NCBI GenBank assembly: GCA_007132905.1
Contig: SLNR01000033.1
Span: 1-62,982, forward strand
Reading direction: 5' to 3'
DNA from: Candidatus Sumerlaeota bacterium
Lineage (GTDB): Bacteria > Bacillota > SLNR01
DNA: 62,982 nucleotides
Shown here piece by piece: positions 17,136 to 62,982 of the stretch. Both the position numbers and the translations under genes were made by a program. Every line of letters begins with the position of its first letter. The first letter of the stretch is position 1. A model generated the notes under the pieces. That model was not told the DNA's origin. It saw only the letters and a program-made list of their open reading frames with translations, and made no database searches.

Positions 17136-17154
17136 TGGAAAAGAAGTGAATACC

Positions 17155-17276
17155 AATGTGCCAGGGGAGCTCCAGGCGGAGCTGAGATAAGGAAATTATA
17201 CCTTAACCCTTTGAACCTGATGAAGAAAGCCTGCTGTGAGTGGGCCTGGATCATACCAGCGCAGGGAGTTTGCACT
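17155..17276 (+). ncRNA. TPP riboswitch aptamer with a 24-nt insertion in J4/5
   Basis: AGGGG..GCTGAGA..ACCCTTTGAACCTGAT[insert]CTGGATCATACCAGCGCAGGGAG; upstream of thiD-thiM-thiE. Confidence 0.9.
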
Positions 17277-17287
17277 CGTTGAATATT

Positions 17288-52793: not shown

Positions 52794-52977
52794 GACAAAA
52801 TAACGCAGATGGACAGAAAAATTCAAAAAATCGGCAGAAACTCAAAATTTATGTGTACGAAACAGGTTTGCTTTGTTATAATAGTAGTCAAATCTTCTTG
52901 TTCTGATTGCCGTAGAAAAGAATGAATAGATAAAGGGCGGTTTGGGCGGGAAGAAACAAAAACTGAGGAGGATGGAC

Positions 52978-54498
52978 ATGATTAGAAAAGGGACCGTAGC
53001 GATTCTGTTGGTAAGTTTGGCGGCTGCCGTGTTTTTTGCCGGCTGTGGCGGAGCACCTGTCGATGAGGCGAGAGAAGAAATTGTCATCGCCCAGGGCGTA
53101 GACGCCACAACCATGGATCCGCATATGCATGCGGAGACAACGACGACCAATGCGATCACAAACATGTATGATCGATTATTGGTGAGGGACCATGACATGG
53201 ATCTACAGCCGCAATTGGCTTTATCCGTGGAACCATTAGATGATCTGACATGGGAAGTGAAGCTTAGGGAGGGCATTGAGTTTCACAATGGGGAGCCTTT
53301 CAATGCTGAAACGGTAAAGTTCAACATTGAGCGGATTATTGATCCTGAGAACCAATCCCCACAGATAGCTGATTTGAATGCAGTGGAAAAGGTGGAAGTC
53401 ATTGATGAGTATACAGCTCACATCATCACCTATGAACCGTATCCTGTCATGGCTGGGCGTCTAAATCTGCCCATGGTGCCAAAAGATTATATCCTGGAAA
53501 ACGGGCAAGAATATTTTGCCCAAAATCCAATTGGGACAGGACCCTATGTATTTGTAAGTTGGACAAGAGACGAGTCCATCGTGTTTGAAGCGAACGAAGA
53601 TTATTGGCAGGGGGCTCCGGCCATCAAAAAAATCACCATTAAGCCCGTACCGGAGAGTTCTACCAGAATTGCTGAGCTTCAAACAGGAGCGGTTGATCTT
53701 ATTGTGAATGTACCGCCGCACCAGGCAGATGTCATTGATGCCGATCCTGTCACAAAAATAGAAACTGTTCCCAGCGGGCGGTTTATCTTTATATCTTTAA
53801 ACACACAGCGCGAAGGTATAATGCAGGACAAAAAGGTGCGCCAGGCTTTGAATCACGCCGTGGACATTGATACGATTATTGATACCGTGTTAGAGGGATA
53901 CGGCTATAAGTCGACCCAGCCCCTTACACCGTTGGACTTTGGCTATGATGATTCCATTGAAGGATATGAGTACAATCCGGAAAAAGCCAGAGATCTCCTA
54001 GCAGAAGCAGGCTATCCTGATGGAATTAGCATTGAACTTGGATCTCCGAGTGGTCGTTATGTAATGGACCGCGAGGTGGCTGAGGCGGTCGCAGGACAGC
54101 TTGCCGAAGTGGGAGTCGAGGCAGAGCTTAACGTCCAAGAATGGGGCGTCTATGTAGGAAAGGTCTTGGAAAAAGAAGCAGAAGAGGCTTATTTGATCGG
54201 TTGGGGCACAGCCCTCTTTGATTCCGATGCAACACTGTATCCCTGGTTTCGAACAGGCATGAGGTTTGCCACATACAGTGATTCCCAGGTAGATGAATAT
54301 CTTGACGAAGCCAGAACTGTCCTAGACGAAGAAGAAAGGGAAGATCTGTACCATCAAGCTTTAGAGATTATCATGGAAGATGCGCCCTTTATTCTTTTGT
54401 ATCAGCAGGAAGATCTTTACGGTCTGAGTGCTGATCTTCAGTGGGAGCCTCGCCCGGATGAACTGATTTTTGTATACGATATGGAATTTGGTGCTTAA
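52978..54498 (+). CDS. Oligo/dipeptide ABC transporter substrate-binding lipoprotein (family 5)
   Basis: Lipobox FAGC, MDPH, LREGIEFHNG, PIGTGPY, VRQALNHAVD, KARDLLAEAGY. Confidence 0.9.
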   Translation: MIRKGTVAILLVSLAAAVFFAGCGGAPVDEAREEIVIAQGVDATTMDPHMHAETTTTNAITNMYDRLLVRDHDMDLQPQLALSVEPLDDLTWEVKLREGIEFHNGEPFNAETVKFNIERIIDPENQSPQIADLNAVEKVEVIDEYTAHIITYEPYPVMAGRLNLPMVPKDYILENGQEYFAQNPIGTGPYVFVSWTRDESIVFEANEDYWQGAPAIKKITIKPVPESSTRIAELQTGAVDLIVNVPPHQADVIDADPVTKIETVPSGRFIFISLNTQREGIMQDKKVRQALNHAVDIDTIIDTVLEGYGYKSTQPLTPLDFGYDDSIEGYEYNPEKARDLLAEAGYPDGISIELGSPSGRYVMDREVAEAVAGQLAEVGVEAELNVQEWGVYVGKVLEKEAEEAYLIGWGTALFDSDATLYPWFRTGMRFATYSDSQVDEYLDEARTVLDEEEREDLYHQALEIIMEDAPFILLYQQEDLYGLSADLQWEPRPDELIFVYDMEFGA

Positions 54499-54619: not shown

Positions 54620-55615
54620 ATGGAGGAGCGTCTTATTGAAGTACAGGGATTAAAAACGCATTTTTTCACCGAAGATGGTGTTGTCCCCGCATTGGATGGG
54701 GTAAGTTTTCACATTAACAAAGGTGAAACTATTGGTGTTGTTGGAGAGTCCGGTTGCGGTAAAAGTGTTACCGCTTTATCCATTATGAAATTAATCCCTC
54801 CGACCATAGGACGCATTGTACAAGGCGATATCCTTTTTAGTGGAGAGAGTTTATTGGAAAAAAGCGAAACACAGATGCGAAAAATCAGAGGAAACGACAT
54901 TTCGATGATTTTCCAAGAGCCAATGACATCTTTAAATCCCGTCTATACAGTGGGGGATCAGATTGCGGAAGCAGTTCAGCTGCATCAGCAATTTGATCGA
55001 AAAAAAGCGATGAAAAAGGCCGTCGAGATGCTGAGTTTAGTAGGGATTCCTCTGCCGGAGAAAAGGGTTAATGAGTATCCTCACCAACTTAGCGGCGGTA
55101 TGAGGCAGCGAGTGATGATAGCGATGGCCTTGTCCTGTAGTCCCAAGCTTCTGATTGCTGATGAACCGACAACGGCCCTTGATGTTACTATCCAAGCTCA
55201 GATACTGCAGCTGATGAAAGATCTAAAGAAAGATCTAAGCACTTCGATTATGCTGATTACCCATGACTTAGGTGTTGTTGCGGAGATGGCAGAGAGGGTA
55301 GCAGTGATGTATGCCGGGCGGATTGTAGAAGAGGGTGATGTCCGATCTATATTTAGAAAACCTCTGCACCCATATACCGAAGGGCTTTTAAAATCCATAC
55401 CGAATATTGACAAACAGAAACAGAGGCTGCATGTAATAGAAGGAATGGTCCCCAATCCAAAAAATGCCCCCTCGGGGTGTAGTTTCCATCCACGTTGTCC
55501 TTATGCAAAAGAAATTTGCCATCAAGAAGAGCCAAGGGTACAGATCATTGATACCAATAGAACAATAAGCTGCTGGCTTCATGATGAGGATAACAGGAAG
55601 GAGGCTGTCAGATGA
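54620..55615 (+). CDS. oppD: Peptide ABC transporter ATPase (OppD/DppD)
   Basis: [44 protein letters not shown]. Confidence 0.92.
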
Positions 55616-56577
55616 AGGCACCTGTATTGCAAGTTCAAAATCTAACGAAACATTTCCCTATTACAGGCGGATTATTCTCGAGGGTAACCGACCAAGTTAG
55701 AGCAGTGGACAATGTCAGCTTTGATTTGTATCAAGGCGAGACACTCGGCCTTGTCGGCGAAAGCGGCTGCGGTAAATCAACAACGGGACGTGTAATACTG
55801 CGTCTGCTGGAGGCGACCAGCGGAGAAGTTATATTTGAAGAGAAGAATATTTTTGATCTCAAAAGAGAAGAAATGCGCATGCTCAGACAAAAATTACAAA
55901 TTATTTTCCAAGATCCTTATGCTTCTCTAAACCCGAGGATGACCGTCGGGCAGACAATAGGAGAAGCTATGGAGATCCATTCAATTGCTACGGGGGTTTC
56001 TAAAAAAAATAGAACAAAAGAGCTTTTGGAAGTAGTAGGTCTGAATCCGGATTATTATGACCGCTACGCTCATGAATTTAGCGGGGGCCAGCGGCAGAGA
56101 ATAGGAATTGCCAGAGCTTTGGCGGTCAATCCCAGTGTCATCGTTTGCGATGAACCTGTTTCGGCTCTTGATGTCTCCATACAGTCGCAGGTGATTAACC
56201 TTTTGGAAGATTTACAAAAAGAATACGGCCTTACTTACCTGTTTATTGCTCATGACCTAAGTGTGGTCAAACACATAAGCGATAGGATTGCCGTGATGTA
56301 TTTGGGGAAAATTGTTGAGATCGGAGCAGGAAGCGATTTGTATAGCAATCCTCTGCACCCTTACACCAAGGCGCTATTGTCAGCTGTTCCCATTCCCGAT
56401 CCGGATGCGATGATAGATAGAATAGTGTTAGAAGGGGATGTCCCAAGCCCCATTAATCCTCCGGAAGGCTGTCGCTTTCATACAAGGTGTCCTTTTGCAG
56501 AAGAAATATGCTCACAAGAGGAGCCTGTTTTTAAAGAGCATAGAGAAGGGCATCAGGCTGCCTGCCACATCCTTTAG
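55612..56577 (+). CDS. oppF: Peptide ABC transporter ATPase (OppF/DppF)
   Basis: [43 protein letters not shown]. Confidence 0.92.
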
Positions 56578-56973: not shown

Positions 56974-57258
56974 GTGAAAATAAGCAGAGAAGAGGTCGAG
57001 CATGTAGCTTTGTTGGCCCGCTTGGCAATTAGCTCAGAAGAAAAGGATATGTTTACCGAGCAGCTAAATGTGATCCTTGAATATGTAGATCAGTTGAATG
57101 AATTAGATACAACTGATGTAAAGCCTACTTCCCATGTGATCCCAGTGAAAAATGTTATGCGTGAAGATCAAGTTGAAACACACTTAACTCAAGAAGAGGC
57201 TTTGAAGAATGCTCCTGAAAAAGAAGAAGGCTATATAAAGGTTCCACGAATTGTTTAG
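56974..57258 (+). CDS. gatC: Asp/Glu-tRNA amidotransferase subunit C
   Basis: EVEHVALLARL, L.ELDT, NVMRED, NAP.....IKVP. Confidence 0.95.
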   Translation: MKISREEVEHVALLARLAISSEEKDMFTEQLNVILEYVDQLNELDTTDVKPTSHVIPVKNVMREDQVETHLTQEEALKNAPEKEEGYIKVPRIV

Positions 57259-57288
57259 GAAATAGACGCGTGAACGGGAGTGGTTTAT

Positions 57289-58770
57289 TTGAAAATTCAT
57301 GAAATGACAGCTCATGAACTTCACAATATGTTGAAAACCAAAGAGATTAGTGCAAAAGAAATCACAACAGAGATATTTAGTCATGTCCATCAAGTGGAAG
57401 ATAGAATGAAATCCTATATTACATTAACTGAGGAGAAAGCCTATGCAGCGGCTGACATCGTTGATAAGAAAATAGCCGGCAATGAAGAGATTTCTCCTTT
57501 AGCGGGCATACCAGCGGCGATTAAAGATGTTTTAAGTACAAAAGGAATCGATACCACCTGTGCTTCCAAGATGCTTGATGGATATGTACCTCCTTATGAT
57601 GCAGCGGTTATAGAGAAGCTTTATAAAAACGATATGGTAATGGTCGGAAAAACAAACTGTGATGAATTTGCGATGGGCTCATCTACAGAAAACTCAAGTT
57701 ATTTTCCCACTAGAAATCCTTGGAATACCGATATGGTTCCGGGAGGGTCTAGTGGGGGTTCGGCTGCTTCGGTAGCGGCGGGACAGGCAGTTTATTCACT
57801 TGGCACGGATACGGGAGGTTCTGTTCGGCAGCCGGCTTCTTTTTGCGGGGTGGTCGGACTAAAACCGACTTACGGCCGAGTATCGAGAAACGGCTTGGTG
57901 GCCCTTGCTTCCTCTCTGGATCAAATTGGTCCTTTTACTAAAGATATAAGGGATTGTGCAATTGTGATGAATGCGATTGCGGGTTATGACAAGAAGGATT
58001 CAACATCCATTTCCAGACCGGTCCCTGATTATACAGAAGCCTTAAAAAAAGATATTAAGGGGCTGAAGATTGGTGTTCCGAAAGAATATTTTGCCGAAGG
58101 GATCCAATCTGAAGTGCGTGACGCCATAGAAACGTCTTTGCAGAAATTGGAAGAACTAGGTGCGATAGTTGAAGAGACATCATTGCCCCATTCAAAGTAT
58201 GCGCTAGCCGTGTACTATCTCATTCAGCCTTCGGAGTGTTCATCGAATTTAGCCAAATTTGACGGGGTTCGTTATGGTTATCGAGACAAGTCAGCTGAAA
58301 ATCTAATCGATATGTATATGAAAACCCGAAGCGAAGGGTTTGGAAAAGAAGTGAAAAGGCGTATTATGCTTGGAACTTATGCATTAAGTTCCGGCTACTA
58401 TGATGCTTATTACTTAAAGGCTTTAAAAGTCCGTACTTTGATTTTGCAGGACTTTGAAAAGGCATTTGGCGAATATGATGTTCTGGTGGCGCCGACCAGC
58501 CCGACAGTGGCGTTTCCGTTTGGCGAGAAAACAGAAAATCCACTACAGATGTATCTATCGGATATCTGTACCATTCCTATCAATTTAGCAGGCATACCTG
58601 GTCTATCAATACCTTGCGGATTTAGTGATGGTCTGCCTATAGGTCTTCAGATCTTGGGAGAACCTTTTAGCGAAGAGAAGCTACTGCAGGTAGGTTATGC
58701 TTTTGAAAAGAATAGCGAGTTTCATTTAGCCAGGCCCTCTTTTGTGGAAGGTGGTGTTGAGGGTGAATGA
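57289..58770 (+). CDS. gatA: Asp/Glu-tRNA amidotransferase subunit A
   Basis: [52 protein letters not shown]; start TTG 57289 or GTG 57280. Confidence 0.96.
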
Positions 58771-60211
58771 ACAGTACGAATCGGTGATTGGTTTGGAAGT
58801 CCATGTAGAAATGAAGACCAATAGCAAAATGTTCTGCGCCTGCAGTGCCGAATTTGGTGCCGAACCCAATACGAATGTTTGTCCTGTTTGCCTGGGACTT
58901 CCCGGGGCTTTGCCTGTTCTTAACAAGAAGGCGGTGGATTTTGCTATACAGACAGCTATCGCATTACAATGTCGTGTTGCTCCCAGCAGTCAATTTGCCA
59001 GGAAAAACTATTTTTATCCTGATTTAGCGAAAGGCTATCAAATATCTCAATATGATTTGCCTCTAGCGAAGAACGGGTTGTTATCGATTGCTACCGATGA
59101 AGAAGATCATGATATACGAATCAACAGGGTCCATTTAGAAGAAGATGCCGGTAAATTGATTCATATCGGGACGATATCAACATCGCCTTATTCAATGGTG
59201 GATTATAATCGATCAGGCGTTCCTCTTATGGAAATTGTCTCCGAACCGGACATCAGAACAGCCGAACAGGCTAGAGCTTACCTTGAAAAACTAAAGGCTG
59301 TTCTGCAATTTATCGGAGTCTCAGACTGCAAGATGGAGGAAGGATCGCTTCGCTGTGATGCGAATATTTCCATACGGAAAATAGGATCGAGTGAGTTTGG
59401 AACAAAAGCCGAGATTAAGAATCTAAATTCGTTTCGATCTGTGGCCAAGAGTATTGAATACGAAGCCGATAGACAATACGAACTACTGGAAAAGGGGACG
59501 GCCCTTGAACAGGAAACCAGGACATGGGATGAAACAAAAGAAGTCACAATGACACTGCGAAGTAAAGAAGAAGCCCATGATTATCGTTATTTCCCGGATC
59601 CGGATCTTGTAGCGATTGAAGTAGATGAAAGCTGGATTAAAGGTTTGGAAAGCAAGCTTCCGGAACTGCCGGCTGCCAGGCAGAAAAGATTCATGGAGAA
59701 ATATGGCTTGGGCCGGTATGATGCTAAAATGCTAACAGCACACCCTCAAACAGGAGTCTTTTTCGACGAAGTGATGAAGCAGTACTCAAATGGCAAAGCC
59801 GTCAGCAATTGGATTGTGGGTGATCTTATGCGCTGTTTGAATGAAGCTGGATTGGGATGGGAAGAAAATCCTTTAAAGCCTGAACAGTTGGCAGGCATGC
59901 TGAAAATGCTTGATGAAGGCGTGATAAGCGGGAAAATAGCTAAAACAGTTTTTCTGGACATGTTTGAATCAGGGAAAAACGCCGAAGATATCATTGAAGC
60001 CAAAGGGCTTAAACAAATCTCTGATAAATCGGTGCTTGAGGAAATCGTGGAGACAGTAGTTGAAGAGAATCCAAAAACAGTGGCAGATGTGAAAAGTGGG
60101 AAGACAAAAGCAGCACAATATCTGGTGGGTCAAGTTATGAAAGTGACCAAAGGGAAAGCCAATCCAGGGTTAGTGAAGGAACTTATAGAAAAAGAACTTG
60201 AAAATAAGTAA
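58763..60211 (+). CDS. gatB: Asp/Glu-tRNA amidotransferase subunit B
   Basis: [62 protein letters not shown]. Confidence 0.96.
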
Positions 60212-60230
60212 AAAAAATTTCAAAAAAAGA

Positions 60231-60255
60231 AGGATATAGAAAAAAGATGTAGAAT
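60231..60255 (+). promoter_or_regulatory. SigH-type promoter
   Basis: AGGA-N17-GAAT exact match. Confidence 0.55.
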
Positions 60256-60257
60256 AG

Positions 60258-60286
60258 TTGACGCTTATATAATGATTTTGTATAAT
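60258..60286 (+). promoter_or_regulatory. SigA promoter of the riboswitch leader
   Basis: TTGACG-N17-TATAAT; predicted start of transcription falls at the aptamer 5' end. Confidence 0.85.
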
Positions 60287-60293
60287 ATAAAAA

Positions 60294-60403
60294 GGAAGTG
60301 TGCCTAGGGTTCCGTAGCTTAGCTGGTCAGGTCCGAGCGGCACAAGGTACTGCTAAAGTGTAGTACCACACCGTGGGTAGAAAAGACCCAAGCGGAAAGT
60401 TCC
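60294..60403 (+). ncRNA. ykkC-class riboswitch, ppGpp-sensing subtype (2a)
   Basis: GGAAGTGTGCCTAGGGTTCCG..GGTCCGAGCGGCACA..ACACCGTGGGTAGAAAAGACCCAAGCGGAAAGTTCC; P0 GGAA/TTCC; A at 60391 before GCGG, where PRPP and guanidine subtypes have G. Confidence 0.85.
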
Positions 60404-60439
60404 TCTCTTTCATGAGTCGGATATCTGCTTGGGTTTTTT
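60386..60439 (+). terminator. Terminator overlapping the ppGpp aptamer 3' end (ON switch)
   Basis: ACCCAAGCGGA...TCTGCTTGGGT-TTTTT. Confidence 0.85.
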
Positions 60440-60454
60440 GTAAAAAAATAACAA

Positions 60455-60731
60455 AAAGCAATGATGGGAATTAGTACAGGATGTTTTGCTGCCACAGAGA
60501 GCCGTGCTGCTGAGAGACGGTCGGCAATTATTTTGGAATCTCCTCCCAAAGCTGCGTACTGAAGGCATTCATTTGCTATTAGGTTTCGCCGGTTAACACA
60601 GGCTACCGTTATCCAGCCGGGGTATCGCTTCTGTTATAGGAAGCCGTACTTGAATGAAACTGCGTTGCAGTCAAGGGTGGTACAGCGGGATAGACTCCCG
60701 TCCCTGGAGAAATTCAAGGATGGGGGTTTTT
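60455..60731 (+). ncRNA. T-box riboswitch (probable Leu CUC specifier) with antiterminator and terminator
   Basis: Stem I with AGTA, AGAGAG and GCTGAGA motifs; GAATCTCC specifier loop; CCGTTA; AAGGGTGGTACAGCG T-box; terminator 60694-60731 ending in TTTTT. Confidence 0.88.
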
Positions 60732-60897
60732 ACTTACTTAAGATAGCAATTTGAGGGGGTGGTTTAATTACCTTATTGGCCTTGGGAACAAAGATAAGCC
60801 GGCAGGAAAGATAATGACCGGCGCAAGAATGACATGGGGATTGACTCAGGAAAAGGGAGTGCAGAGATGTTGAAGGACATAATGATAAGAAAGGCAG

Positions 60898-61824
60898 GTG
60901 GTTACCTTGACGAAGTATATTGTACGTAGACTTCAGCAGTCCGTGCTGGTCATTTTTGGAGTTTCGTTGGTGGTTTTCTTTATCATGCATATGACGGGTG
61001 ACCCTGCCACTCTTATGCTACCTTTGGATGCCACAGCCGAGGAAGTTTATCAGTTTAAGGAATCTTTGGGGTTAAATGATCCTCTTCCTACCCAGTATTT
61101 TCGTTTTCTCGGCGGAGCCGTGCAGGGTGATTTCGGGAACTCACTTCGACATAATTCTCCGGCTCTGCCGTTGGTGATGGAACGCCTTCCGGCAACATTT
61201 CAGCTGACATTTTTGGCTATGGCTATTGCTGTTTTCATCGCGATACCCATTGGGGTTATTTCAGCCACCAGGCGGTATTCCATTTTTGACTATGTGGGAA
61301 CCGTAGGTGGTCTTCTGGGCCAATCGATGCCGGTCTTTTGGCTGGGTATAATGTTAATTTTGCTTTTCGGTGTTCAACTTCAGGTATTGCCGACTTCCGG
61401 TAGAGGAACTTTTGCACATTTAATACTGCCGGCCATCACTCTGGGAACTTATTCCACAGCCACCATCATGAGGCTTTTACGATCAGGGATGGTAGAAGTA
61501 TTAAAGCAGGATTATATAAAAACAGCCCAATCGAAGGGTCTTTCGGAGAAAGTTGTCATTTATAAGCATGCACTCAAGAATGCTCTTATTCCTGTAGCGA
61601 CAGTTATTGGACTCCAGTTCGGGGCTTTGCTCGGCGGAGCCGTGATCACAGAGACAATTTTTGCTTGGCCCGGTGTCGGGCGGCTTGCGATCCAAGCCAT
61701 TAACAATCGGGATCTTCCCTTAGTCCAGTCTATTGTCTTTATTATGGCTTCATCGATTGTTTTAATCAATTTGCTGACGGACGTGGCTTATACCTATCTA
61801 GATCCAAGAATACGATATGATTAG
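60898..61824 (+). CDS. oppB: Peptide ABC transporter permease (OppB/DppB)
   Basis: YIVRRL, GDPA, LGLNDPL..QY, GDFGNS, P.FWLG, DYI.TA.SKG, ETIFAWPGVG; start GTG 60898 or TTG 60907. Confidence 0.92.
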   Translation: MVTLTKYIVRRLQQSVLVIFGVSLVVFFIMHMTGDPATLMLPLDATAEEVYQFKESLGLNDPLPTQYFRFLGGAVQGDFGNSLRHNSPALPLVMERLPATFQLTFLAMAIAVFIAIPIGVISATRRYSIFDYVGTVGGLLGQSMPVFWLGIMLILLFGVQLQVLPTSGRGTFAHLILPAITLGTYSTATIMRLLRSGMVEVLKQDYIKTAQSKGLSEKVVIYKHALKNALIPVATVIGLQFGALLGGAVITETIFAWPGVGRLAIQAINNRDLPLVQSIVFIMASSIVLINLLTDVAYTYLDPRIRYD

Positions 61825-61837
61825 GAGGTGGTGAAAA

Positions 61838-62776
61838 ATGGATGATTACATTGGAACCGTATTGAAAAGACAGAAGGAAGAGGAAGTGGTAGAAGAGGAA
61901 AAGACTCCTTCTGAAACGTCGATAAAGGTTCGCAGAGCGCTGAAAGGATTGGTTAAAAATAAGGCTGCACTCGTTGGGGCGTGTATTTTGGTGGCAGTAG
62001 TGGCAGTTGCTTTAATGGCATCTGTTATTTCACCCTATGATCCTAATTCTCAAAATTTAGCTCTGAGGCTTACTCCGCCGGCTTGGGCTGAAGGGGGAAG
62101 CATCTCCCATGTTTTAGGGACGGATCATCTAGGTAGAGATATATTAAGCAGGCTATTTTTTGGAGCAAGGATTTCCTTAATGGTAGGGGCGGTGGCGGTC
62201 GTTATTTCAGGTTTCCTGGGAACTACATTAGGTCTGTTATCAGGTTTCTATGGGAATAAGGTAGATACGTTTATCATGCGGCTGGCCGATATACAGCTAG
62301 CTTTCCCCTTTATATTGCTTGCTTTGGCTGTTATGGCCGTCCTTGGTAGCGGACTTCGTAATGTTATCATTGTATTAGGCGTAACCGGTTGGGTAATGTA
62401 CGGTCGAGTTGTTCGAAGCGAAGTAATTTCGATTAGAGAAAAAGAATATGTGGAAGCTTCAAGAGCCATCGGGAATAAAGATATCCAGATTATGATGAAG
62501 CATATTCTTCCCAATATTATCAGTACCATCGTGATCATTGGTACTTTGGAAGTAGCCAGGGTTATTATTGCAGAATCAGCCCTGACCTTTTTGGGTTTGG
62601 GTGTGGAACCCTCCATACCAACCTGGGGGAGCATGCTTTCTGATGGCAGAGAGTATATTTCTAATGCCTGGTGGGTAGCTACCTTTCCTGGTTTGGCGAT
62701 CATGTTTACGGTTTTGGGTATCAATCTTGTTGGTGACTGGCTCAGAGACACCCTCGATCCACGTCTAAAAACTTAA
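61838..62776 (+). CDS. oppC: Peptide ABC transporter permease (OppC/DppC)
   Basis: H.LGTD.LGRDI.SR...GARISL, EYVEASRAIG, HILPN, LTFLGLG, PTWG.ML, GDWLRD.LDPR. Confidence 0.92.
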   Translation: MDDYIGTVLKRQKEEEVVEEEKTPSETSIKVRRALKGLVKNKAALVGACILVAVVAVALMASVISPYDPNSQNLALRLTPPAWAEGGSISHVLGTDHLGRDILSRLFFGARISLMVGAVAVVISGFLGTTLGLLSGFYGNKVDTFIMRLADIQLAFPFILLALAVMAVLGSGLRNVIIVLGVTGWVMYGRVVRSEVISIREKEYVEASRAIGNKDIQIMMKHILPNIISTIVIIGTLEVARVIIAESALTFLGLGVEPSIPTWGSMLSDGREYISNAWWVATFPGLAIMFTVLGINLVGDWLRDTLDPRLKT

Positions 62777-62861
62777 ATGACAGACGGCTTTATTCATAGT
62801 TTTACGATAAACGGAAGCCCAAAAATATATAGAAGCATATTTTATCGTCATAAAGTATCTC

Positions 62862-62887
62862 AACACCCGAAAGGGTGTTTTCTTTTT
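62862..62887 (+). terminator. Intrinsic terminator after oppC
   Basis: AACACCC-GAAA-GGGTGTT-TTCTTTTT. Confidence 0.75.
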
Positions 62888-62936
62888 ATCGAGAAGAATA
62901 AATGTAGAATACGAGCAAGTTTTATAGGAGATGATG

Positions 62937-62982
62937 ATGGAGATGAAAGACAAAAATAACAAGAAAAACCCGCCGATAAAAA
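62937..62982 (+). CDS. N-terminus of a gene truncated by the window edge
   Basis: AGGAG SD at 62926-62930 followed by in-frame ATGs and an open frame (MEMKDKNNKKNPPIK) to the end. Confidence 0.45.
   Translation, partial: MEMKDKNNKKNPPIK

Follow-up and report, generated by a model that had tools for sequence, protein, structure and literature searches.

Tandem ppGpp-type riboswitch and leucine T-box predicted to gate Opp-type permease genes in a Candidatus Sumerlaeota genome

On contig SLNR01000033.1 of a Candidatus Sumerlaeota bacterium (GenBank assembly GCA_007132905.1), a non-coding stretch of 690 nucleotides (nt) separates gatB (58742–60211) from two ATP-binding cassette (ABC) permease genes, oppB and oppC. 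This leader probably acts as a two-terminator AND gate that would allow transcription of oppBC when guanosine tetraphosphate (ppGpp) and uncharged tRNA-Leu are both present. From sequence comparison we infer the binding of these ligands, the AND logic, the substrate of the transporter and a leucine auxotrophy of the host. The window analyzed here (62,982 nt) is the entire contig of a 2.07-Mb draft genome (G000), which is 94.5% complete. For comparison we used three genomes of the same family (G001, G002 and G003), one genome from a sister family (G004) and one from an unrelated family (G045). The tandem leader recurs in all three same-family genomes with 71–73% identity to the G000 copy, and in each of them it precedes oppBC.

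Results

The ppGpp-type aptamer and its terminator

An Rfam scan of the window at gathering thresholds returned zero matches, and both RNAs of the leader emerge when E-value thresholds are used. The ykkC aptamer at 60293–60404 (+ strand) matches the Guanidine-I/ykkC model RF00442 over model positions 1–107 (60293–60396) with 53.0 bits (gathering score 63; E-value 2e-8 in the local search, 1.4e-6 when the whole window is searched and 1.1e-8 in the genome search). Because this model was built for another subtype, we do not regard the sub-gathering score as a warning sign. The features on which the initial annotation had based its assignment are all present. The P0 helix pairs GGAA (60294–60297) with TTCC (60400–60403), the tail reads CCC-A-AGCGG with AAGCGG at 60390–60395, and A60391 stands directly 5' of GCGG, where aptamers for phosphoribosyl pyrophosphate (PRPP) have G. 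The pocket of the window RNA contains ACACCG, as opposed to the ACGG of guanidine-I RNAs.

Alignment of 42 AGCGG-type aptamers revealed that the window RNA has the consensus residue at 38 of 38 invariant and 15 of 15 near-invariant columns. The consensus fold of this alignment recovers P0, P1, P1a, P1b and P3 with compensatory changes in 12 of 19 pairs. Pairs in P0 covary, from GC to AU in four sequences and from AU to GC in another four. P2 is missing from the consensus fold; its predicted fold in the window pairs GGUACUGC with GUAGUACC. The ACACCG motif is invariant across the 42 aptamers and the window; C75 of the T. mathranii construct, the conserved C that pairs with the guanine of ppGpp, may correspond to a base of this motif, judging from the published text rather than from a structural alignment. 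Finally, the tail and 3' P0 strand of the window aptamer (CCCAAGCGGAAAGTTCC) are identical to those of three ilvE-linked aptamers (L101, L162 and L163).

Two surveys relate the aptamer tail to the gene that follows it. Survey A searched public genomes with a sequence pattern, called first genes by Pfam annotation and gave 80 loci from at least 122 stretches, corresponding to 82 aptamer rows (two loci overlap). Survey B applied the AGCGG version of the pattern to 401 genomes sampled across the phylum and returned 43 matches in 38 genomes. Purine genes follow none of the 25 AGCGG rows in survey A and none of the 43 matches in survey B. The first genes behind the 25 rows encode IlvE (10), IlvB (4), AMP-binding plus ACT proteins (3), livK-type binding proteins (2) and IlvD (1), with one case each of an SNF transporter, an ABC ATPase, a GNAT protein, a LarA-like protein and an unknown protein. 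In contrast, 47 of the 57 rows with other tails precede pur genes or xanthine/uracil permeases; six of the remaining ten stand before ilv or glutamate synthase genes and four before nothing related. PRPP-type tails in this survey read G[G/A]CGG after a spacer base. We ascribe the difference between AGCGG and other tails to a known specificity switch: as described in PMC6031431, G96 of PRPP riboswitches pairs with C75, and the single substitution G96A is reported to shift the preference for PRPP towards ppGpp about 40,000-fold. Opp-type permeases follow none of the 25 AGCGG rows of survey A and 6 of the 43 ppGpp-type aptamers of survey B. These six come from two unrelated lineages; five belong to the window's own order and hence are not independent.

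With the A-before-GCGG tail and P0 in place, and with AGCGG tails never found before purine genes in either survey, we share the preference of the initial annotation for the ppGpp over the PRPP subtype. The aptamer is filed as a ppGpp/pppGpp-type (subtype 2a) RNA, a class that predicts binding of ppGpp or guanosine pentaphosphate (pppGpp). The genome has no other ykkC-type RNA, and it encodes a Rel/SpoT protein.

The aptamer is followed by intrinsic terminator 1 (60381–60441, + strand; fold −62 kcal/mol, z −5.25), which is conserved in the three relatives. Its 5' arm (60381–60396) overlaps the 3' strand of P3 and the AAGCGG tail, the overlap that had been pointed out before. Since terminator formation would consume both P3 and the ligand-binding tail, this element should act as an ON-switch expression platform.

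The T-box and its cognate tRNA

The second RNA is a T-box leader at 60452–60708 (+ strand), which matches RF00230 over model positions 1–219 with 83.5 bits (E 1.9e-18; gathering score 93). Nine of the 22 T-box matches across the same genome, several of them before aminoacyl-tRNA synthetase genes, also score below 93 bits, and for this reason the low score of the leader copy is no warning sign either. The covariance-model check proposed in the initial annotation finds both RNAs at full length and below their gathering scores. The second intrinsic terminator (60693–60731, + strand) has a 14-pair stem, kept in all four family genomes, and then a T run. This terminator and the T-box antiterminator can form only as alternatives, which bears out the description of a complete T-box with a terminator of its own.

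In the Rfam register, the specifier reads CTC (CUC, Leu) at 60540–60542. This triplet is invariant in the four genomes, as is the block CTCCTCCC in the four-genome alignment. The initial annotation had proposed CTC/Leu and kept ATC/Ile as an alternative register; the former holds, and the latter was rejected for lack of conservation, as ATC occurs in G000 only and the other three genomes have AAC at that place. The T-box of the leucyl-tRNA synthetase gene in the same genome likewise reads CUC, a codon that accounts for 29 of 498 leucine codons in 11 window genes. A tRNA-Leu(GAG) ending in A73-CCA is encoded on contig C105. The bulge UGGU at 60678–60681 matches this A73-CCA end, with T60681 opposite the discriminator A73, in line with the earlier reading of this variable base.

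Promoter, spacer and RNA-library contigs

The predicted SigA promoter was readily located at 60258–60286 (+ strand; TTGACG, 17 nt, TATAAT) with 11 of 12 matches to the sigma-70/SigA consensus, and places the predicted transcription start near 60293 in an A run. It is the sole promoter-like site on the + strand in 60100–61553; the promoter scan overall is without enrichment (6 sites vs 5.2 expected). No promoter-like site was found on this strand in 60287–61552. An internal promoter in 60732–60897, which had been named as a possible driver of oppBC, gains no support from the scan, which found no site there.

Between terminator 2 and oppB lies a conserved spacer (60732–60908, + strand) in which the four-genome alignment reveals a hairpin and an upstream open reading frame (ORF). 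The hairpin pairs GCCGG (60798–60802) with CCGGC (60819–60823) and shows a compensatory change in G003 (GCCGA/TCGGC). On the minus strand, the same hairpin is followed by a T-rich run, and the G003 copy scored as terminator-like (L022 10873–10853). A 24-nt block within 60850–60929 is invariant and contains a strong Shine–Dalgarno sequence and an ATG at 60867. The ORF that starts there (60867–60929, 20 codons) overlaps the likely start of oppB and may serve translational coupling or encode a leader peptide.

Metatranscriptome run X1 provides contigs that give no strand or ends, may stem from carried-over DNA and have depths that are unusable for gene ranking; stretches without a contig (for example, 61417–62982) carry no information. 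One X1 contig of 520 nt spans 60308–60831 across both terminators, and a second of 358 nt lies inside oppB. Both are compatible with read-through transcripts, and no more than that. The leader contig carries a 4-nt deletion at 60730, at the end of the T run of terminator 2 within a TTAC/ACTT repeat, which probably reflects strain variation.

The gated genes encode half of a split transporter

Domain analysis agrees with the initial annotation that oppB and oppC follow the leader and identifies both products as permeases of the PepT family (Opp/Dpp). The oppB gene (60909–61824, + strand) likely starts at TTG 60909, where G003 has ATG at the equivalent position; the longest ORF begins at GTG 60898. 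Its product contains BPD_transp_1 and BPD_transp_1_N domains, and its best NCBIfam match is the nickel model Opp2B (347.7 bits vs a cut-off of 350). OppC (61838–62776, + strand; OppC_N and BPD_transp_1 domains) is closest to Opp4C (309.5 bits vs 350). A terminator-like hairpin with a T run follows at 62862–62889 (+ strand), and the next gene in G003 lies about 400 nt further on; we therefore consider oppBC a two-gene operon.

The probable partner genes of the same transporter are located upstream on the same strand and code for a family-5 binding protein (52942–54498), OppD (54620–55615) and OppF (55612–56577). They are separated from oppBC by gatCAB (56974–60211), and the RNA scan of the window found no riboswitch before them. 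G001, G002 and G003 all show the order ligA, oppA, oppD, oppF, gatCAB, leader, oppB, oppC. G004 has the same split order minus the binding-protein gene, and here the aptamer stands alone with the gene start about 150 nt downstream. In G045, a ppGpp-type aptamer without a T-box precedes a complete oppBCDFA operon. None of the five transporter proteins reaches a substrate equivalog cut-off in NCBIfam (GsiB model: 237 vs 594), and the nearest solved binding proteins in a sequence search of the PDB include YliB/GsiB, HbpA and NikA.

Binding-protein paralogues behind other RNA sensors

The same genome contains three stand-alone genes for family-5 binding proteins that are 54–59% identical to the product of the oppA-like gene in the window, and each follows a T-box: C8:12876–14802 with the specifier UGG, C111:562–2508 with UUC and C143:18061–19995 with UAC (specifiers as placed by the Rfam register). 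Whether UGG stands for Trp is uncertain, given G73 in tRNA-Trp and U in the C8 bulge. In G001–G004, T-boxes precede five of six such paralogues (UAC in three cases, UGG in two), and an S-adenosylmethionine (SAM) riboswitch precedes the sixth. Across the five genomes, eight of nine close paralogues (51–61% identity) are thus found behind Tyr, Trp or Phe T-boxes and the ninth behind the SAM riboswitch. The other two opp sets in the own genome have binding proteins with just 23–27% identity to that of the window. This pattern of similarity suggests that several sensor-controlled binding proteins may use the gated permease in common. The position of the paralogues behind T-boxes or a SAM riboswitch also favors a substrate related to amino acids over nickel.

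The roughly 180 nt between the paralogue T-boxes and their genes (C111:2057–2256, C143:19553–19747 and C8:14365–14563) contain an additional antiterminator/terminator-like module. Here a T-box-like core (GGGTGGTACCGCGG) is joined by a hairpin and a T run; the module comes without a second Stem I and may be a duplicated expression platform.

Leucine biosynthesis and CodY

Profile searches returned no LeuC match in G000–G003 or G045 and no IlvE match in the own genome. The best LeuA-like proteins score 177–188 bits in G000–G003 (184 in G000) and 19.1 in G045, against a cut-off of 598.7. G001, which is 100% complete, likewise has neither LeuC nor a true LeuA. In contrast, G004, which has no T-box before oppB, encodes LeuA (728.8 bits) with an adjoining LeuC-like gene. 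Other parts of the pathways to branched-chain amino acids (BCAA) are encoded in the own genome at C46:10958–18217, where ilvB-ilvN-ilvC-ilvD stand behind a GUC (Val) T-box and a second ilvB behind an AUC (Ile) T-box. As the correlation depends on a single contrast (G004) and on incomplete genomes, we treat leucine auxotrophy of the host family as likely rather than established.

In Firmicutes, dpp/opp operons for peptide transport are repressed by the protein CodY, which senses GTP and BCAA at the promoter. Two CodY homologues are encoded in the own genome (C10:53094–53846 and C10:74437–75192) with 278.9 and 342.1 bits vs a cut-off of 267.2. A search of the window with a 15-nt CodY-box consensus, allowing up to three mismatches, gave 3 matches vs 8.25 expected, none of them near the leader.

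Elsewhere in the window, a thiamin pyrophosphate riboswitch model matches 17153–17284 (+ strand) with 40.6 bits (E 1.6e-4), below its gathering score of 54.3.

Discussion

Proposed mechanism and alternatives

We propose that a leader of about 600 nt is transcribed from one promoter and carries, one after the other, two transcription-attenuation switches that work independently. At the first, bound ppGpp or pppGpp would let the P0/P3/tail fold form and sequester the 5' arm of terminator 1, so that the polymerase could continue. Downstream, the CUC specifier in Stem I would read the anticodon of tRNA-Leu(GAG), and the bulge would pair with the free ACCA end that only uncharged tRNA offers, favoring the antiterminator over terminator 2. 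Just those transcripts that pass both terminators would reach oppB-oppC, which approximates the logic "ppGpp AND uncharged tRNA-Leu". The output would be the membrane half of a split Opp/Dpp-family importer, with the genes for the binding protein and the ATPases outside the gate. Since leuA and leuC are undetected in the family, import, most likely of peptides, would relieve leucine starvation.

Several observations weigh against this model. Both RNAs score below the Rfam gathering cut-offs. The T-box bulge of G000 reads TGGTACA (60678–60684) with A for the conserved C at the seventh position, as the initial annotation had noticed, and the relatives have TGGTACC; moreover, the base 3' of the specifier is C instead of the usual purine. 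The RNA-library contig that bridges both terminators could reflect read-through, leakiness or carried-over DNA. The G004 aptamer stands before oppB without a T-box, which indicates that ppGpp input alone can serve this target. The model nearest to OppB is that of a nickel permease, and the binding protein most resembles GsiB/YliB and HbpA. Lastly, in a genome that is 94.5% complete, the absence of leuA, leuC and ilvE is unproven. One alternative is that G000 has no strict AND gate, either because its T-box is weakened and ppGpp is the effective input or because both terminators are leaky and control is graded and multiplicative. The unusual bases at the bulge and after the specifier, the T-box score of 83.5 bits here vs 103 in G002 and 108 in G003, the control of the same genes by an aptamer alone in G004 and the bridging contig all speak for this possibility. 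We nevertheless consider it quite unlikely. The T-box on C8 carries the same bulge A, so this variant seems to be tolerated, all four genomes share the C after the specifier, and specifier, antiterminator and terminator are intact and conserved. It is very unlikely that the aptamer is a ykkC subtype-2 RNA for another ligand (PRPP, a nucleoside diphosphate, guanidine or an unknown compound) and that the opp-linked copies form a separate class. For such a class one can cite that Guanidine-I is the only Rfam family matched, that the opp association falls outside the three gene classes of PMC6003355 and that single-base changes can switch specificity in the ykkC fold (PMC6031431). Against it stand the consensus residues at every column conserved among ilvE-, ilvB-, ilvD- and livK-linked aptamers, the tail and 3' P0 strand shared with ilvE-linked RNAs, the ACACCG pocket in place of the guanidine-type ACGG, and the company that PRPP-type tails keep with purine genes.

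The transporter might also import something else that family-5 systems handle (nickel, glutathione or an opine-like compound, for example), with an indirect link to leucine. This view draws on the Opp2B score just short of its cut-off, on the equivalog cut-offs that none of the five proteins reaches, and on YliB/GsiB, HbpA and NikA as nearest solved binding proteins. We judge it unlikely, if not negligibly so, given that the permease genes would answer to tRNA-Leu, that T-boxes for Tyr, Trp or Phe precede eight of the nine paralogues and a SAM riboswitch the ninth, and that T-box control of oppA is on record in Lactobacillus (PMC3766115, supplement). Expression of oppBC regardless of the leader, from an internal promoter in 60732–60897 or by read-through from gatCAB, appears most improbable. 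The spacer of about 175 nt does hold conserved blocks, and the interval from gatB to the leader showed no terminator-like site, but the + strand has no promoter-like site between the leader promoter and 61552, and transcripts derived from gatB would still meet both terminators. We retain the ppGpp/tRNA-Leu gate as the most plausible description of the leader.

On a wider scale, the leader gate could stand at the center of a regulon that is run by RNA throughout and serves one Opp-type translocon, in a lineage unable to make leucine. The permease pair would then be expressed only with ppGpp and uncharged tRNA-Leu, and interchangeable binding-protein paralogues would be turned on one by one, through T-boxes for Tyr, Trp or Phe or through a SAM riboswitch. 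We put this idea forward tentatively, as possible rather than probable. If true, tRNA charging would set the amount as well as the substrate preference of a common importer, and this lineage would have transferred the ppGpp/T-box(Leu) gate from the synthesis of leucine to its acquisition. The narrower proposal already brings in a further gene class, Opp-type peptide permeases, where few targets of ppGpp riboswitches and of ppGpp/T-box(Leu) tandems have been listed. The likely leucine auxotrophy provides a rationale, as an amino acid that is not made would place the same starvation gate on uptake, mirroring CodY control. Gating of the membrane half, together with paralogues under separate T-boxes, offers a compact natural test system for combinatorial RNA control.

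Comparison with known systems

According to PMC6003355, about 40% of BCAA-linked ppGpp riboswitches adjoin a Leu T-box, each RNA having its own expression platform, and the pair is predicted to act as an AND gate. The tandem census in PMC9481103 (Table 2) lists 15 cases with ppGpp aptamer and then T-box and 16 in reverse order. Both sources agree with the initial annotation that such tandems are known mostly before BCAA genes. The AND logic of the published tandems is also a prediction, for which in vivo studies are still needed (PMC6031431). The window leader resembles the ppGpp/T-box(Leu) tandem as presented by Sherlock, Sudarsan and Breaker in 2018 (PMC6003355) and by Sherlock et al. in 2022 (PMC9481103) in its RNA classes, a published order, the Leu specifier, separate terminators and predicted AND logic. 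It differs in its output, which is oppB-oppC instead of ilv or leu genes, and in a host family that appears to be without leuA and leuC. BCAA biosynthesis genes, which are the usual association of the tandem and not a structural requirement, are not its output here.

Single ppGpp riboswitches, as described in PMC6003355 before ilvE, glutamate synthase and natA-type ABC transporter genes, share with the window the aptamer consensus, P0, a non-G residue at G96 and a terminator-based ON platform. The window adds a T-box and a gene class outside the list in the main text of that paper, which gives 78 BCAA, 15 glutamate synthase and 12 natA/ABC targets and in which "peptide" and "opp" occur zero times; to this extent, the oligopeptide-type permeases are an unreported target, as the initial annotation had supposed. 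Our literature search for ppGpp riboswitches or T-boxes with opp, dpp or peptide transporters showed no pairing of a ppGpp riboswitch with opp or dpp among the matches listed. The PRPP riboswitch (subtype 2b) and the guanine/PRPP tandems (PMC6031431) have the fold and P0 in common with the window aptamer, and their sequences are very close. Unlike the window aptamer, PRPP riboswitches have G at the position of A60391, and their tails go with purine genes (survey A).

CodY control and the proposed gate have in common that peptide uptake is turned on when a stringent-response signal combines with a BCAA deficit. Unlike CodY control, the device in the window is made entirely of RNA and would work by termination.

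Control of Opp components by amino-acid-sensing RNAs is itself already on record. The supplement of Sun et al. 2013 (PMC3766115) places oppA behind a T-box in Lactobacillaceae and oppBCDFA behind a SAM riboswitch in Bacillus cereus. As in these cases, an amino-acid-sensing leader RNA is found on a component of an Opp-type transporter; unlike these cases, in which one sensor mostly controls the binding protein, two serial sensors here precede a permease pair. The RNA device is thus already published, and what is new is its target, the permease half of a split Opp-type importer.

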